64,000 bases of DNA, taken from the NCBI GenBank assembly GCA_030390025.1, contig CM059432.1, positions 89,344,001 to 89,408,000 of the forward strand, in the 5' to 3' direction. This document shows, one piece after another, positions 20,931 to 61,075 of this stretch. The DNA comes from Squalus acanthias (Eukaryota). Below the pieces are notes generated by a model, which saw only the letters and a list, made by a program, of their open reading frames with translations, was not told the DNA's origin and searched no databases. Made by a program: the position numbers and the translations under genes. Each line of letters starts with the position of its first letter. The stretch's first letter is position 1.

Positions 20931-22159
20931 GTTAAAGCCTGTGAGGCCTGACTCTAAGAGCTTTTAATATAGCCCATTCCATATCGTCCTCCTCCAATAT
21001 AAAAATAGAGAAATTCCCATTGAGAATGCAAATCAATGCAAATCAGTCCTGTGAGCAGAGCTGATTGAAACTAGCAGCAAAGGTTCTGACTGAACATTCA
21101 AAGTACTAATAGGTTCAATATGCAGGCAAAGTACCACCAATCTCAGCACACAAAACGGCCTCCCAAATTTTGGCATCGCCCTCAGGGATTTAAATGAATA
21201 TTTTGCATCTGTGTTCACTATGGAGAAGGACGATGTAGGCATAGAAATCAGACAGGGGGATTGTGATATATTTGAACAAATTAGTATTGAGAGGGAGGAG
21301 GTACTAGCGGTTTTAGCGGGCTTAAAAGTGGATAAATCCCCAGGCCCAGACGAGATGTATCCCAGGCTGCTGTGTGAGGCAAGGGAGGAGATTGCAGGGG
21401 CTCTGACACAAATTTTCAGAACCTCTCTGGCAACAGGGGAGGTGCCAGAGGACTGGAGAACAGCTAACATAGTACCATTGTTCAACAGGGGTAGTAGGGA
21501 TAAACCAGGGAATTACAGGCCAGTGAGCCTAACATCAGTGGTAGGGAAATTAGTGGGAAAAATTCTGAGGGACAGAATTAGTCTCCACTTGGAGAGGCAG
21601 GGATTAATCAAGGATAGTCAGCATGGCTTTGTCAGGGGGAGATCATGTCTGACCAATTTGATTGAACTTTTCGAGGGGGTGACTAGGTGTGTGGATGAGG
21701 GTAGTGCAGTTGATGTGGTCTACATGGACTTCAGTAAGGCTTTTGACAAAGTCCCGCATGAGAGACTGGTCAAGAAGGTAAGAGCCCATGGGATCCAGGG
21801 CAACTTGGCATATTGGATCCAAAATTGGCTTAGTGGCAGGAGGCAGAGGGTGATGGTCGAATGTTGTTTTTGTGACTGGAAGCCTGTGTCCAGTGGTGTA
21901 CCGCAGGGATCGGTGCTGGGTCCTTTGCTGTTTGTAGTGTACATTAATGATTTAGATATGAATGTAGGAGGTATGATCAGTAAGTTTGCAGATGACACGA
22001 AAATTGGTGGGGTGGTAAATAGCGAGGAGGGAAGCCTCAAGCTACAGGACGATATAGACGGTTGGTCAGATGGGCAGATCAGTGGCAAATGGAATTTAAC
22101 CCTGAAAAGTGTGAGGTGATGCATTTTGGGAGGACTAACAAGGCAAGGGAATACACAAT

Positions 22160-22903
22160 GGCCCGAAAATTAGACCTAATACGCGAGAGTACGCACTGTG
22201 TACTCTCGCGTTTTAGGTCTCCAATTGCCGGTTTCCAGCATGCACTGCACATGCGCGGGAAACCGGCACTTCGTGAACTCAAAAGGGGGCGGTTCCTAAG
22301 TGAACCGCGTGTGCGCTACAGGCTGCGCGCACGCAGTGCACTTAGTGCTTTGAACGCGCAGGTAAGCATGGAAGATTTTGCACATAAAGAAAGGAGGCGT
22401 AAGACCCTCTTTTAACAAGGTAAGTAGTTAATTAAGTATTATTTTACATTTTTTTCAACAGGTTTATCTTTTTTAGAGACTTTAAAGAAAGGTAAGTTTA
22501 TTTTTATAACTTTTAAAAAGATTTTAAATTTTTTCAAAAATTTAATTTTTTGTTTAAAGTGGTTAATTTATTTAACTATACTTATTTTATTAATGTGATG
22601 GCTTTTTTTTTAAATTTAATTGAGGTTTAGCTGTTCTTTTGGGGGGGTATAGATTCATAGCTTTGACAGGTCTTCCTGTCAAAACTATGAATGAAAGATG
22701 GTGTGCTGCCATTGGCTCTAACTGAATCACGTGATCCCAGAGCTCGCACGAACTAACTGCGTCTCTGGCTCACGCAAGCACTGCACAGCTGCAGCCTTGA
22801 AACTAAAGTTCGTGTGAGCCCGGAGGGAAAAGGTAGGCGCGCAGTGAGATATCGCGGGGAAGCCTTACCCCCGCAGGAACGCTCCGTGTTTAATTTCTGG
22901 GCC
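22160..22903. mobile_element. Harbinger-type MITE, family A copy 2 (744 bp), 3-bp TSD AAT
   Basis: TIRs GGCCCGAAAATTA / TAATTTCTGGGCC; AAT at 22157-22159 and 22904-22906. The empty site ATACAC-AAT-GAATGG is present in the sister CR1 at ~59531-59545. Confidence 0.95.
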
Positions 22904-23054
22904 AATGAATGGTAGGATCCTAGGAAGGACAGAGGATCAGAGGGACCTTGATGTGGATGTACATAGATCCCTGAAGGCAGCAGGACAGGTAGCTAAGGTG
23001 GTTAAAAAGGTATATGGGATACTTGCCTTCATTAGCCGAGGCATAGAATATAAG

Positions 23055-23270
23055 TCATGATGCGGAGATGCCGGTGTTGGACTGGGGTGGACAAAATTGA
23101 GAGGTCGCACAACACCAGGTTATAGTCCAACAGTTTTATTTGAAATCACAAGCTTTCGGAGCTATCGATTGCTCCTTCCTTCACCTGAGGAAGGAGCAAT
23201 CGATAGCTCTGAAAGCTTGTGATTTCAAATAAAACTGTTGGACTATAACCTGGTGTTGTGCGACCTCTCA
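23055..23270. mobile_element. Fold-back Penelope-like mini-element with hammerhead motif; 12-bp TSD
   Basis: TSD ATAGAATATAAG at 23043-23054 and 23271-23282. Inverted arms 23096-23180 and 23188-23272 match at 84/85. The empty site is present in the sister CR1 at ~59676. Confidence 0.9.
23181..23222 (+). ncRNA. Minimal type I hammerhead ribozyme motif
   Basis: TCAC-CTGAGGA-A-GGAGC(aatcgata)GCTCT-GAAA-GC-TT-GTGA: helix I TCAC/GTGA, core CUGANGA...GAAA, palindromic AGCT in place of helix III, and a UH cleavage site. Confidence 0.75.
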
Positions 23271-24077
23271 ATAGAATATAAGAGCAGGGAGGTTATGATG
23301 GAGCTGTACAAAACGTTAGTTAGGCCACAGCTGGAATACTGTGTGCAGTTCTGGTTGCCACACTATAGGAAGGATGTGATTGCATTGGAGAGGGTGCAGA
23401 GGAGATTCACCAGGATGTTACCTGGGCTGCAGCGCTTCAGCTATGAAGAGAGACTGGACAGGCTGGGGTTGTTTTCCTTAGAGCAGAGAAGGCTGAGGGG
23501 GGACCTGATTGAGGTGTACAAAATTATGAGGGGCATAGATAGGGTAGATAGAAAGGACCTTTTCCCCTTAGTAGAGTGGTCAATAACCAGGGGGCATAGA
23601 TTCAAGGTAAGGAGCAGGAAGTTTAGAGGGGATTTGAAGAAAAACTTTTTCACCCAGAGGGTGGTTGGAATCTGAACTCACTGCCTGAAAGGGTGGTAGA
23701 GGCAGGAACCCTCACAACATTCAAGAAGCATTTAGATGAGCACCTGAAACGCCATAGCATAAAAGGCTACGGACCAAGTGCTGGAAAATGGGATTAGAAT
23801 AGACAGGGCTTGATGGCCGGTGCGGACATGATGGGCTGAAGGGCCTCTTTCTGTGCTGTATAACTCTATCTATGACTCTATGACCTTCCTGCAGCTCTTA
23901 CCACCACTTATAAAGTGATGGTAATTGTTTGGGGCAGATAATGGGTACAATGGATCGATGGAATTAGCTACACCCCATTTACATAAGGCAGATTGGGCTC
24001 CTGATGGGTCTTGAAGGGGACTAATGTTTTTTTTGGTGGGTTAACTCAGGTGCAAGCTTTCAGCAGTGAATTTGATT

Positions 24078-55217: not shown

Positions 55218-56631
55218 AAATGGCATGCTGGCCTTTATATCTAGAGGACTAAAATACAATGGTGCAGGAGGGAGGGCTTTAGATTCCTGAGGCATTGGGA
55301 CCATTTCTGGGGAAGGTGGGACCTATACAAACTGGACAGGTTACACCTCAACAGAACCGGGACCAATATTCTCGCGGGGAGGTTTGCTAGTGCTGTTGGG
55401 GAGGGTTTAAACTAGCTTGGCAGGTGGATGGGTACCAGCATATAGGAGTAGAAAAGAGGAATAAGGTGCATGAAAGAGTGAGTGTGTTGGATAGTACTAG
55501 AGAAGAAATTAGTACTTGAGGCGGAAATAGTACCATATTAGATAGGAGCAGACCAAGAAAGACTACGAAAAATTCAAAAATGGGTTTAGAATGCATGTAC
55601 GTAAACGCACACAGTGAGGTAAAAAAGGTTGGTGAGCTACAAGCACAATTAGCCATGTGGCAATATGATGTTGTGGCAATAACGGAAACGTGGCTTAAAA
55701 ACGGTGAGGACTGGGCACTTAATATTCAAGGGTACAAAGTGTTCAGAAAAGATAGGGAAGGAAAAAAGGGAGGTGGGGTGGCAGTGCTGATTAAGGAAGA
55801 CATTGTAGTGCTGGAAAGGGAGGATGTTCTTGAGGGGACAAGGACAGAATCCATTTGGTTAGAGTTGAGGAGCAAAAAGGGTATGATCACGCTATTGGGG
55901 GTATTCTATAGGCCTCCAAATAGTGAGAGGGAGGTAGAGGAGCAAATCTGCAGGGAGTGAAATTAAGAAACACTTCTACACACAAAGGGTGGTAGACGTT
56001 TAGAACTCCCTTCCGTAAATGGCAATTAATGCCAGATCATTTGTTAATTTTAAATCTGAGATTGATAGATTTTTGTTAACCAAAGGTATTAAGGGATATG
56101 GGCTAAAGGCGGGTATATAGAGTTAGGTCACAGAGCAGCCATGATCTCATTGAATGGCGGAACAGACTCGAGGGGCTAAATGGCCTACTCCTGTTCCTAT
56201 GTTTAGTTGGGCATATAAATTAACATACGTCATAGGGAACCTTAAAGGGTGCAAAAGAAAGACGAAATTATGGAGTAAGTTAATCAGGGTTCTATGAGTC
56301 AGAATCTGAAAGAGAAAGCTAGTTTAATGTTTTGAAGCTGCGCTGAAGAGTTTACACCGAATGCATTAACCTCTCAGAGAGATGGAACAGCTGTAACAGG
56401 CCGAATGGCTTCTTTAAGTGCTATAAAACTCTATGAGGTGACGTTTCCTCCTGAGTGCACATCGTGCAGGCGGGCGGGCAGCCACCCAGTAGTCACAGCA
56501 GGAGACCTGGTTCGTTTTGCGGGCCGAGGTTATTTGCATCAGGACAGTGGGCTGCAACCGGCTTCGAGCTCGGGGCTGCCGGAATATCATGTGGCACAGC
56601 AGGGCTATAGCCAAATAAGACAGGTGCATTG

Positions 56632-57066
56632 GAGGCAGGGGGCGGGGCAGCTCCTTCCCGGGAAGGGGCGTTGCAGCTCGATCTCGGGAGGGGCGGGGCA
56701 CCGCGATCTCGATCTCGGCAGGGGGCGGGGCAGCTCCTTCCCGGGAAGGGGCGTTGCAGCTCGATCTCGGGAGGGGCGGGGCACCGCGATCTCGATCTCG
56801 GCAGGGGGTGGGGCAGCTCCTTCCCGGGAAGGGGTGGGGCAGCTCGATCTCGGGAGGGGCGGGGCACCGCGATCTCGATCTCAGGAGGGGGCGGGCCAGT
56901 TCGATCTCGGGAGGGGGCGGGGCAGTTCGATATCGGGAGGGGGCGGGGCACATCGATCTCGGGAGGGGAGAGGCAAATCAATCTCGAGAGGGGAGGGGCA
57001 GATCGATCTCGGGGGGGAGGGGCAGATCAATCTCGGGAGGGGGAGGGGCAGATCGATTTCAGGAGG
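56632..57066. repeat. G/CpG-rich minisatellite, left part; includes three 83-bp higher-order units
   Basis: Core GGGGCAGCTCGATCTCGGGAGG; CAGCTCCTTCCCGGGAAGGGG recurs at 56648, 56731 and 56814. Confidence 0.9.
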
Positions 57067-57260
57067 GGATATGGAGTGGAACTATAGTAGGGGGTGATGC
57101 ACAGCCAAATATAGAGGAAAAAACAAGTCAGCCTGGAAGGCAGAGCAAATATGTAATGGCACAAGGGAGTATGACAAGGCTGGTTGGCATTTATTTTAAT
57201 GCAAGGAGTCTTGCGAGTAAGGCAGATGAATTGAAGGTGTTGATGAACACATGGGACTAT

Positions 57261-57468
57261 CCATGATGTGGAGATGCCAGTGTTGGACTGGGGTGGACAA
57301 ATGTGAGAAGTCACACAACACCAGGTTATAGCCCAACAGCTTTATTTGAAATCACAAGCTTTCGGAGCGCTGCTCCTTCGTCAGGTGAAGTGATGAAGGA
57401 GCAGCGCTCCGAAAGCTTGTGATTTCAAATAAAGCTGTTGGACTATAACCTGGTGTTGTGCGACTTCT
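57261..57468. mobile_element. Fold-back Penelope-like mini-element with hammerhead motif; ~13-bp TSD
   Basis: TSD CACATGGGA(C/G)TAT at 57248-57260 and 57469-57481. Inverted arms 57301-57383 and 57391-57473 match at 80/83. Confidence 0.9.
57352..57388 (-). ncRNA. Minimal type I hammerhead ribozyme motif (intact core)
   Basis: Minus strand reads TCAC-CTGACGA-A-GGAGC(agc)GCTCC-GAAA-GC-TT-GTGA. Confidence 0.8.
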
Positions 57469-60282
57469 CACATGGGAGTATGATATTGTTGCTATCACAG
57501 AGACATGGTTGAGGGAGGGGCAGGACTGGCAGCTCAATATTCCGGGGTATAGAATCTTCAGGCGAGACAGAGGGGGGTGTAAAAGAGGAGGGGGTGTCGC
57601 AATATTAATCAAGGAGTCAATTACTGCTGTAAGGAGGGATGATATCTTAGCAGGTTCCTCTAATGAGGCCATATGGGTAGAACTTAAAAACAAAAAGGGG
57701 ACAAGCACTTTGCTGGGAGTGTACTATAGGCCCCCAAACAGTCAGGGGGAGATAGAGGAACAGATATGTAGGCAAATCTCAGAGAAGTGTAGAAATAATA
57801 GGGTAATAATAGTAGGGGATTTCAACTTCCCCAATATTAACTGGGATAGTCAGAGTGTGAAAGGCTTAGAGGGTGCGGAATTCTTAAAGTGCATCCAGGA
57901 GAGCTTTTTGAGCCAGCATGTAGAAAGTCCAACAAGAGAGGGGGCGGTACTGGACCTAATTCTAGGGAATGTATCCGGGCAAGTGGTAGATGTGTCAGTA
58001 GGAGAGCATTTTGGTGACAGTGACCATAATTCGGTGAGATTTAAGGTAGTCATGGAAAAGGACAAAGATGGACCGGAAATAAAGGTTCTAAACTGGGGGA
58101 AGGCCGATTTTAATATGATAAGGCAGGATCTGGCCAAAATGGACTGGGATCAGCTACTTGTAGGAAAATCCACATCAGAGCAATGGGAGTCTTTCAGAAA
58201 GGAAATAGAGAGAGTACAACGCCAACATGTTCCCGTAAAGGTCAAGGGTGGGACCAACAAGCCCAGGGAACCCTGGATGTCAAGGGATATACAAGAATGG
58301 ATTAGGAAAAAGATGAAGGCTTTTGGCAGATACAAAGGACTAAAAACAGTGGAAGCCCTAGAGGAGTATAGAAAGTGCAGGGGGGTACTTAAAAAAGAAA
58401 TTAGGAGAGCAAAGAGGGGGCATGAAAAAACACTGGTGGACAAAATAAAGGAAAATCCAAGGTGTTTTATAAGTATATTAAGGGCAAGAGGATAACCAGG
58501 GAGTAAGTAGGGCACATTAGGGACCAAAGTGGCAATCTGTGTATTGTGCCGGAAGATGTAGGTGAGGTTTTAAATGAATATTTTGCATCTGTGTTCACTA
58601 TGGAGAAGGGTGATGTAGGCATAGAAATCAGGCAGGGGGATTGTGATGTACTTGAACAAATTAGTATTGAGAGGGAGGAGGTACTAGCGGTTTTAGCGGG
58701 CTTAAAAGTGGATAAATCCCCAGGCCCTAACGGGATGTATCCCAGGCTGCTGTGTGAGGCAAGGGAGGAGATTGCAGGGGCTCTGACACAAATTTTCAGA
58801 ACCTCTCTGGCCACAGGGGAGGTGCCAGAGGACTGGAGAACAGCTAACATAGTACCATTGTTCAACAGGGGTAGTAGGGATAAACCAGGGAATTACAGGC
58901 CAGTGAGCCTAACATCAGTGGTAGGGAAATTAGTGGGAAAAATTCTGAGGGACAGAATTAGTCTCCACTTGGAGAGGCAGGGATTAATCAAGAATAGTCA
59001 GCATGGCTTTGTCAGGGGGAGATCATGTCTGACCAATTTGATTGAATTTTTTGAGGGGGTGACTAGGTGTGTGGATGAGGGTAGTGCAGTTGATGTAGTC
59101 TACATGGACTTCAGTAAGGCTTTTGACAAAGTCACACATGGGAGACTGGTCAAGAAGGTAAGAGCCCATGGGATCCAGGGCAATTTGTCACATTGGATCC
59201 AAAATTGGCTTAGTGGCAGGAGGCAGAGGGTGATGGTCGAAGGTTGTTTTTGTGACTGGAAGCCTGTGTCCAGTGGTGTACCGCAGGGATCGGTGCTGGG
59301 TCCTTTGCTGTTTGTAGTGTACATTAATGATTTAGATATGAATGTAGGAGGTATGATCAGTAAGTTCGCAGATGACACGAAAATTGGTGGAGTGGTAAAT
59401 AGTGAGGAGGGAAGCCTCAGGCTATAGGACGATATAGACGGGATGGTTAGATGGGCAGAACAGTGGCAAATGAAATTTAACCCTGAAAAGTGTGAGGTGA
59501 TGCATTTAACAGGACAAACAAGACAAGGGAATACACAATGAATGGTAGGATCCTAGGAAGGACAGAGGATCAGAGGGACCTTGGTGTGCATGTACATAGA
59601 TCCCTGAAGGCAGCAGGACAGGTAGATAAGGTGGTTAAAAAGGCATATGGGATACTTGCCTTCATTAGCCGAGGCATAGAATATAAGAGCAGGGAGGTTA
59701 TGATGGAGCTGTACAAAACATTAGTTAGGCCACAGCTGGAATACTGTGTGCAGTTCTGGTCACCACACTATAGGAGGGATGTAATTGCATTGGAGAGGGT
59801 GCAGAGGAGATTCATCAGGATGTTACCTGAGCTGGAGCGCTTCAGCTATGAAGAGAGACTGGACAGGCTGGGGTTGTTTTCTTTAGAGCAGAGAAGGCTG
59901 AGGGGGACCTGATTGAGGTGTACAAAATTATGAGGGGCATAGATAGGGTAGATAGAAAGGAACTTTTCCACTTAGTAGAGGGGTCAATAACCAGGGGGCA
60001 TAGATTCAAGGTAAGGAGCAGGAGGTTTAGAGGGGATTTGAGGAAAAACTTTTTCACCTAGAGGGTGGTTGGAATCTGGAACTCACTGCCTGAAAGGGTG
60101 GTAGAGGCAGGAACCCTCACAACATTCAAGAAGCATTTAGATGAGCACATGAAACGCCATAGCATACAAGGCTACGGACCAAGTGCTGGAAGATGGGATT
60201 AGAATAGACAGGGCTTGATGGCCGGCGTGGACACGATGGGCCGAAGGGCCTCTTTCTGTGCTATATGACTCTATGACTATGA

Positions 60283-60790
60283 GGGCGAGGAGGGGGAGGG
60301 GGAGGGTAGCTCGATCTCGGGAGGGGGTGGGACAGGCACGATCTCGGAAGGGGGAGGGGCGGGGCAGCTCGATTTCGGGAGGGGGCAGGGGCAGCTCGAT
60401 CTCGGGAGGTGGAGGGGGCGGGGCAGTGTGATCTCGGGAGGGGAGGGGTCGGGGCAGCTCGATCTCGGGAGGGGGAGAGGGCGGGGCAGCTCGATCTCGG
60501 GAGGGGGAGAGGGCGGGGCAGCTCGATCTCGGGAGGGGGAGGGGGCGGGGCAGCTCGATCTCGGGAGGGGGAGAGGGCGGGGCAGCTCGATCTCGGGAGG
60601 GGGAGGGGGCGGGGCAGCTCGATCTCGGGAGGGGTAGAGGGTGGGGCAGCTCGATCTCGGGAGGGGGAGGGGTCGGGGCAGCTCGATCTCGGGAGGGGGA
60701 GGGGGCGGGGCAGCTCGATCTCGGGAGGGGGCGGGGCAGCTCGATCTCGGGAGGGGGCGGGGCAGCTCGATCTCGGGAGGGGGAGGAGGC
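60283..60790. repeat. G/CpG-rich minisatellite, right part (about 16 units of ~26-33 bp)
   Basis: Tandem GGGGCAGCTCGATCTCGGGAGGGGG with variable G/A spacers. Confidence 0.92.
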
Positions 60791-60819
60791 CGGATTTGTG
60801 AAGTCTGGAGGTGCCCTCT

Positions 60820-61075
60820 TCCTCTTTTAATGTAAACCAATCAATTATCTGTAACTAAATAAAACTTTAAAGGAAACTTAACAAATCAAATTAAAATTTG
60901 GTAGTCCGGGGTGACGATGCACTCCAGCCCCCGCGGCGCCCACCGGTCGCGGAAAAACTCAAGCGTGCCGGCGGACACCGCGTGCTCCATCTCCAGGGCC
61001 ACCCGGGCACGAACATGGCCGCGGAAGAGAGGCAGGCAATCGGGCCGAACGAGGAGGTGCCCTCTTGCTGCTCCC
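60820..61075 (-). mobile_element. Tx1/L1-group LINE ORF2 C-terminal fragment with short 3'UTR
   Basis: DCLPLFRGHVRARVALEMEHAVSAGTLEFFRDRWAPRGLECIV...stop resembles Tx1-type ORF2 C-termini (recognised from memory); CpG-rich. Confidence 0.6.

Follow-up and report, generated by a model that had tools for sequence, protein, structure and literature searches.

A Penelope-like hairpin insertion in Squalus acanthias, probably primed from both strands of its target

How does a mobile element come to leave a hairpin in which the same short stretch stands twice, head to head, with a tail on one side and none on the other? The question is raised by positions 57248-57481 (TSD to TSD) of the window, by which we mean the whole stretch of 64,000 nt of Squalus acanthias DNA analysed here. 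Here a Penelope-like element (PLE), from a family with a reverse transcriptase (RT) and a GIY-YIG domain, has inserted as a short head-to-head copy, and such hairpins are the shortest class of ordinary PLE insertion. The element itself is ordinary and its layout is already published; its value therefore lies in the population-level signatures of its relatives. From these we argue that the PLE enzyme probably nicked the two target strands at points about 12 bases apart, with each cut end then priming reverse transcription of the RNA's front part. The mechanism proposed in an earlier note on this DNA proves largely right, its argument from private variants does not.

The insertion, its hammerhead and its parent family

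The described layout of a 13-bp TSD, 40-nt tail, 83-bp arms and 7-nt spacer is all present at 57248-57481. The left TSD copy (57248..57260, plus strand) bears one later substitution and differs by one mismatch from the right copy (57469..57481, plus strand), and empty copies of the host LINE site (L153, L063) hold the duplicated sequence once. On the minus strand lie the 40-nt tail (57261..57300) and the tail-bearing arm (57301..57391), which reaches the A of an initiator-like motif at 57391, the putative RNA start, 7 nt before C3 of a predicted hammerhead core (C3 at 57384). The tail-less inverted arm (57391..57473, plus strand) begins one base inside the core, and the full core is on the minus arm, as claimed; this arm ends at an internal start zone and does run into the TSD, with a 5-nt overlap (57469-57473). 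Paired as repeats, the arms (57301-57383 and 57391-57473) match over 83 bp with three mismatches, two at CpG sites and one elsewhere, around a 7-nt spacer read from the sequence (57384-57390). Counting arm positions from core C3, as we do throughout, the tail arm extends to -7 and is joined to the other arm through a 3-nt overlap visible in the sequence, the head-to-head junction (57391..57393, unstranded). The same junction occurs 228 times genome-wide, on varied subfamily backgrounds.

An element of a younger subfamily with the same layout and a 12-bp TSD lies on the minus strand at 23043..23282. Its arms measure 85 bp counting a 2-nt overlap, with one mismatch and a 7-nt spacer, and here the tail-less arm is the longer and bears the full core. 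The note had given both elements the same geometry: their sizes are indeed similar, but the 83/7 geometry is not fixed, since the distance between the two arm motifs ranges from 61 to 3,494 nt across the sample, and the near-equal size arises because the tail arm ends at -7 in 57248-57481 and the tail-less arm at -6 in 23043-23282. Both elements are inserted in a LINE. The insertion at 57248-57481 breaks the endonuclease domain of a LINE ORF (57150..58500, plus strand, frames open on both sides; Pfam Exo_endo_phos, E 9e-14), which we take to be of CR1 type. The LINE copies hosting the two elements (21186-24000, 58566-60274) are 95-97% identical, so both insertions struck one young LINE family. 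G-rich tandem repeats of 26 and 32 nt flank the host LINE (56604-57074, 60289-60823), which suggests head-to-tail LINE copies or an untranslated-region repeat.

A minimal type I hammerhead is predicted on the minus strand at 57352..57388 from sequence, fold and covariation; at gathering scores Rfam gives no match anywhere in the 64-kb window. Stem I pairs 57385-57388 with 57352-57355 and stem II pairs 57372-57376 with 57364-57368; the core occupies 57378-57384, with an extra A at 57377 and GAAA at 57360-57363, a palindromic AGCU stands where helix III would be, and the predicted cut falls between 57356 and 57355. Across 23 distinct rows, 98.1% of cells in stems I and II pair, compared with 24-49% in slid controls, with C-G to U-A changes in both stems (15/8 in stem I, 19/3 in stem II); the rows are related and hand-picked (24 of 37 variants), so these changes represent few events. 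The stems thus covary as the note's proposal of selection on RNA structure would have it, but that selection would act most simply on coding source elements rather than on stubs. One subfamily (L040, L092, L114, L165, L170) has C instead of U at core position 4, mostly together with a compensatory change of a stem II pair. In a predicted fold of the leader, the tail pairs with the arm and the internal start zone lies at the top of the stem, with weak z-scores (-1.1, -0.2) and with the fold only partly recovered in the other lineage.

The parent family is large. Searching the 3.7-Gb genome with 31 nt of the tail gives 33,913 exact matches; the reversed-pattern control gives none. Copies were sampled from the first 100 listed tail matches (first 9 Mb, contig C1) and from 20 random 10-kb stretches, so that the sample requires an exact tail match and comes mostly from the first 9 Mb of one contig; a genome query with the whole hairpin is biased to its own junction, and its 30 copies were excluded from counts or kept apart. 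Among 103 distinct tail-anchored copies, a tail-less inverted arm lies within 4 kb in 85 and within 200 nt in 51, and none has a tail on both arms. Long arms extend into sequence coding for RT and GIY-YIG, read in the same direction as the hammerhead. Full-length units form tandems spaced 3,137-3,138 bp, which create pseudo-LTRs, and in them the tail finishes at the ORF's first ATG. The arrays whose 3,138-bp units are intact (L206, L207; G000:C2 211.21-211.22 Mb and C1 223.72 Mb) encode 921 codons from stop to stop and 892 from the ATG, and one of them includes a full-length inverted unit; from these arrays the family looks recently active. The intact ORF belongs to the lineage of the first element (23043-23282), and pieces of the ORF are also found in arms of the 57248-57481 lineage (L107, L116). 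At 3.5 kb, the insertion L157 (G000:C1 2.014-2.018 Mb) shows the same internal ORF rearrangement on both arms, a candidate for a variant private to one source locus.

In the parent ORF, Pfam identifies RVT_1 above its cut-off (E 2.7e-8) and GIY-YIG just below its own (E 2.9e-4; 21.5 bits against a curated 22.6), and it finds no family in the N-terminal 500 aa of L160. The linker between RT and endonuclease carries C-x4-C-x2-C before the GIY-YIG motif, in agreement with the CX2-5CxxC trait of Neptune. The motif also occurs in Nematis (PMC8557442), and a clade label taken from the linker alone would fit either.

Target sites, junctions and arm ends

Of 119 two-armed copies, 109 have a TSD and 81 unbiased ones were scored. 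The duplication is 12 nt long in 41 of the 81 and 13 nt in 21, and the 41 copies of the 12-nt class share T-G-N-Y before the site (25, 30, -, 39 copies) and G-N-C-A after it (28, -, 23, 24). The target thus has dyad symmetry and a stagger of 12 nt, the pattern that a single specificity acting on both strands would be expected to give. Recurrent independent insertions at the same positions of other repeats, mostly LINE (L010/L021/L026/L100/L117; L033/L152/L154; L083/L128/L147), are consistent with this consensus.

Both outer junctions show more microhomology than chance predicts. The mean is 1.80 nt at the tail-less junction (71 clean of 81) against a null of 0.90+-0.11, and 1.45 nt at the tail junction (58 clean of 81) against 0.62+-0.12; neither mean was reached in any of 2,000 permutations, with the qualification that 10 and 23 of the 81 outer junctions had negative overlaps and were dropped and that the TSD finder, which maximises matches, may inflate overlaps. 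Tail-less arms end within a zone of about 12 nt, with microhomology to the target, and an overlap of at least 5 nt occurs in 2 of 71, which makes the 5 nt of 57248-57481 unusual. The idea that the second target strand primed by microhomology thus stands as to enrichment at the tail-less end, but the matches are short and the tail end is enriched too. Central junctions average 2.57 nt against a null of 0.72+-0.18, with no permutation as high, in the 30 of 70 that are clean; the other 40 contain inserts or have no close reference. Some carry short inserts that repeat nearby sequence, resembling polymerase-theta end joining. Inversion points and microhomology are accordingly both non-random across the sampled copies, the pattern that the note's proposal called for.

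The most informative ends are those at the head of the RNA. Among genome-wide arm starts matching the exact core of the 57248-57481 subfamily, 375 begin at -8, 2,411 at -7 and 1,531 at -6, and of 184 sampled arms 31 stop between -7 and -4 and a further 37 between -3 and +10; end positions in this sample can lie a few bases too far upstream (the -13 to -8 bin). The base at -7 is the A within TCACT or TTACT, a motif that matches the initiator consensus, and TATATAT lies 30-34 nt upstream of this A in 73 long arms. Hand counts over the first 100 rows put a G directly before the arm in 40, 68 and 23 cases for starts at -8, -7 and -6 (Fisher p 1e-4, 2e-10), although the excess at -7 is partly explicable by a GA overlap with the partner arm and the -7 count contains a native T variant (T in 20/100 rows). 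In the younger lineage, where 46 of 47 have T as their native base at -8, the preceding base is G in 43, C in 45 and A in 12 of 100 among 246 matches, a weaker result; symmetric junctions of this lineage with a single central base have G:C in 39 of 49 (p 4e-5), three of the 49 lying within 71 kb and being possible duplicates. The extra G is on the tail arm in 10 of 19 and on the tail-less arm in 9 of 19 (20 fetched, one without a tail), and the junctions that carry it span several loop variants and mostly different targets. Judged from sequence, the pile of arm ends together with an untemplated G is what run-off to the end of a capped RNA would be expected to leave, with the A at -7 as the probable RNA start site. 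Untemplated G in L1 and SVA insertions has been attributed to copying of the cap (PMC3287187).

Hammerhead cleavage does not create this pile, because the predicted cut lies 36 nt downstream of it. There are 559 arm-start matches at the cut and 354 two bases downstream, several of them sharing a GT or GTGA overlap; of 20 looked at for each, 15 (14 by eye) and 9 are real truncations. Arm starts at the predicted cut may thus be about 2.5 times as numerous as those 2 nt downstream, a small excess that the overlap explains in part.

Templates and the integration reaction

The reaction that we propose would begin with the PLE enzyme nicking both strands of a dyad target about 12 bases apart. One cut end would prime at the end of the tail, beside the start codon; the other would start from an internal site, placed at the top of the predicted stem-loop, each event aided by one or two paired bases; the copies show two fixed start zones about 40 nt apart. 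The template transcript would have started at the TATA/initiator promoter in the terminal repeat, and the two cDNAs would run about 130 and 90 nt to its capped 5' end, where their ends would be trimmed and then joined through microhomologies of 2-4 nt, short inserts being added in some cases. Both arms of a young copy would stem from one RNA or one source locus, and long arms would come from priming on the 3' repeat of a read-through transcript. The hammerhead would ride along in the stub because it sits at the front of the RNA; the stub, lacking TATA box and ORF, is likely a dead end. We hold this reaction to be probable. The stronger reading, that PLEs integrate by double-ended priming on one capped mRNA (symmetric enzyme, dyad site, 12-nt stagger, two fixed sites, run-off at the cap, end-joined heads), is a tentative proposal that we do not call probable.

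The earlier note had likened the origin of the hairpins to twin priming. In L1 twin priming, the second nicked strand primes on the RNA and the resulting inversion is joined by microhomology; the internal site where the second primer lands varies, and the two parts are copies of different stretches. The likeness holds insofar as both target strands likely prime. It fails in that both PLE arms copy the same stretch from two fixed sites: tail-less ends fall within about 12 nt and the arms overlap fully, unlike twin priming as generally understood for L1.

What the arms say about their template depends on the lineage. The three differences between the window elements are mirrored on both arms of each, as the note stated, but they are not private: they are subfamily markers also present in long copies, so two elements alone are unable to show one template. 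The wider comparison rests on 84 elements, with 7 entries dropped for misalignment, nesting or duplication. Distance between an element's own left and right arms is 2.2% (78 elements), compared with 6.0% for left-left, 6.3% for right-right and 6.2% for cross pairs between elements; arms cluster by element and not by side, and a fixed palindromic master, under which left arms would group with left arms, is refuted. Inheritance of the junction-side A/G mismatch from a master was likewise ruled out: by hand count of the first 100 rows, a CpG change by the junction appears in 10 cases on the tail-less arm, in 7 on the tail arm and in 1 on both (0.7 expected if independent), and since CpG changes fall on either arm independently, the mirroring does not come from routine arm-to-arm conversion. 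The simplest reading is that at integration both arms derive from a single template or a single source locus, and one RNA molecule is indistinguishable from two transcripts of one locus.

Two-nick priming could also involve an enzyme dimer carrying two RNA molecules, for the most part transcripts of a single active locus but at times of two, a reading that we regard as possible but rather unlikely. It would account for the older lineage, that of 57248-57481, in which loops are discordant between the arms in 8 of 37 copies (16 expected at random, in a set that includes loci chosen by junction patterns), several of the discordances being linked haplotype swaps that match real subfamilies (L099, L135, L141). 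Arms also differ more at diagnostic sites (20/526, 3.8%) than at invariant ones (62/4,667, 1.3%), and a predicted dimer is reported for the anole protein (PMC11167929). The younger lineage speaks against two RNAs, with no discordant loops in 47 copies where random pairing of its 8 coexisting loop variants would give 27.3 (other lineages, 0/5), and discordance tracks age (arm divergence 31/1,620, or 1.9%, in the older lineage and 5/2,115, or 0.24%, in the younger; Fisher p=0.0009). One template per insertion, as the note had it, therefore fits the younger lineage and not all of the older. A complex central junction and a private variant are common to copies at two targets (L093:4240-4560; L097, L098); only these three copies have the junction, all within 550 kb (G000:C1 3.43, 3.97, 3.98 Mb), and conversion between neighbouring copies plus local duplication is the likely cause. 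This points to later conversion by neighbours as a source of mismatches, and together with the absence of young discordance it weakens discordant arms as proof of two RNAs.

The remaining alternatives dispense with some part of the two-ended reaction. The pile at -7 could be a stop of the RT at the folded edge of the hammerhead on a longer RNA rather than a transcription start; the pile does coincide with the 5' edge of stem I, and the sampled ends spread from -7 to -4 and on to +10. We consider this improbable, because the step from 375 to 2,411 is sharp and one-sided, the 73 long arms have TATA at promoter spacing, an untemplated G is present at junctions, and stem I is just 4 bp and ends at -4. 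Less probable still is self-priming, the route suggested for rotifer PLEs: a single cDNA (or an antisense template) would fold onto itself and be copied again. The concordant arms of young copies and the native palindromes at some junctions (L040, L125, L145) would suit it, and palindrome priming at inverted junctions has been proposed in PMC3846280. Yet of 84 elements 27 have the longer arm on the tail-less side and 24 on the tail side, in 19 the two lie within 5 nt and in 14 both are long; snap-back of a tail-primed cDNA cannot produce a tail-less arm that reaches further upstream, as in those 27, which include 23043-23282. Nor would it put the extra G equally on either arm or restrict the tail-less end, with its target microhomology, to a zone of some 12 nt. 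That the hairpin is itself a non-autonomous mobile unit, a palindromic master or retrozyme-like element copied whole, is very improbable, although the exact junction of 57248-57481 recurs 228 times and one complex junction is common to two target sites: left arms do not group with one another, junctions as well as sizes grade continuously, copies with the same junction differ in subfamily markers, the shared complex junction is confined to three local copies, and the stub has no TATA box.

Relation to known elements and meaning

Insertions of EN+ PLEs typically include an inverted 5'-truncated copy, a one-sided tail of 30-40 bp and a TSD (PMC8557442), and the rotifer Pen2a_Av has an inverted pLTR, tail, TSD, TATA and TCACT, for which self-priming was proposed (PMC3846280). 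The Squalus copies resemble those described in the accessible text of both papers in their head-to-head inverted copy, tail at one end and TSD, and also in the TATA and TCACT of the terminal repeat, partial tandems and a tail beside the start of the ORF. They differ in a TSD of 12-13 bp, against 8-10 in the rotifer (PMC3846280), and from the complex PLE insertions described there in that about half of the copies are ORF-less stubs. The initiator pile with its extra G and the dyad target are seen here and were not found in the accessible text of PMC8557442 and PMC3846280.

Biochemically, the closest comparison is PAc (Poseidon of Anolis carolinensis), which in vitro cuts and extends both strands and has two internal RT start sites bounding the tail, in a stem-loop (PMC11167929). 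As in PAc, a hammerhead lies upstream, and the PAc reaction needs no cleavage. PAc belongs to the Penelope/Poseidon clade, unlike the Neptune-type linker here, and its tail is inside the ORF, whereas the Squalus tail ends at the ATG. The accessible text on PAc reports no strand bias of start sites and no target homology; here every inverted copy has one tail end and one tail-less end, and outer junctions show microhomology, a contrast that counts against the proposed reaction. The main text of that paper leaves inverted copies unexplained. The predicted hammerhead resembles the minimal hammerheads of metazoan PLEs (PMC4209133) in its extra base after A9, G10.1-C11.1 pair, 4-bp helix I, palindrome where helix III would be, many loop variants per genome and opposite-strand pairs 100-700 bp apart; it departs from them, as far as they are described in the accessible text, in a helix II of 5 bp and in a cleavage triplet that ends in U in the 57248-57481 lineage.

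Relative to the literature found, what is new is the pile of arm ends at the initiator A and the untemplated G. In the open literature, which the survey covered (subscription papers and supplements being outside its scope), we found no account of run-off to the cap, untemplated G or two-ended priming in PLEs, and no mention of cap copying in the accessible text of PMC2881922.

The origin of the inverted ends and one-sided tail of PLEs has been ascribed to self-priming (PMC3846280), and the later steps of integration stand as unvalidated in the accessible text of PMC11167929. More than 33,000 copies in this genome yield sharp predictions about the geometry and consensus of the cut, the two start zones, a one-base start, a cap-derived G and concordant arms, and these population signatures make a model of PLE integration testable. 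If double-ended priming on one capped mRNA is true, the inverted repeat and the tail of PLEs would be one outcome of a single reaction, and thousands of copies in the genome would record where transcription starts, the cap and how templates were paired.
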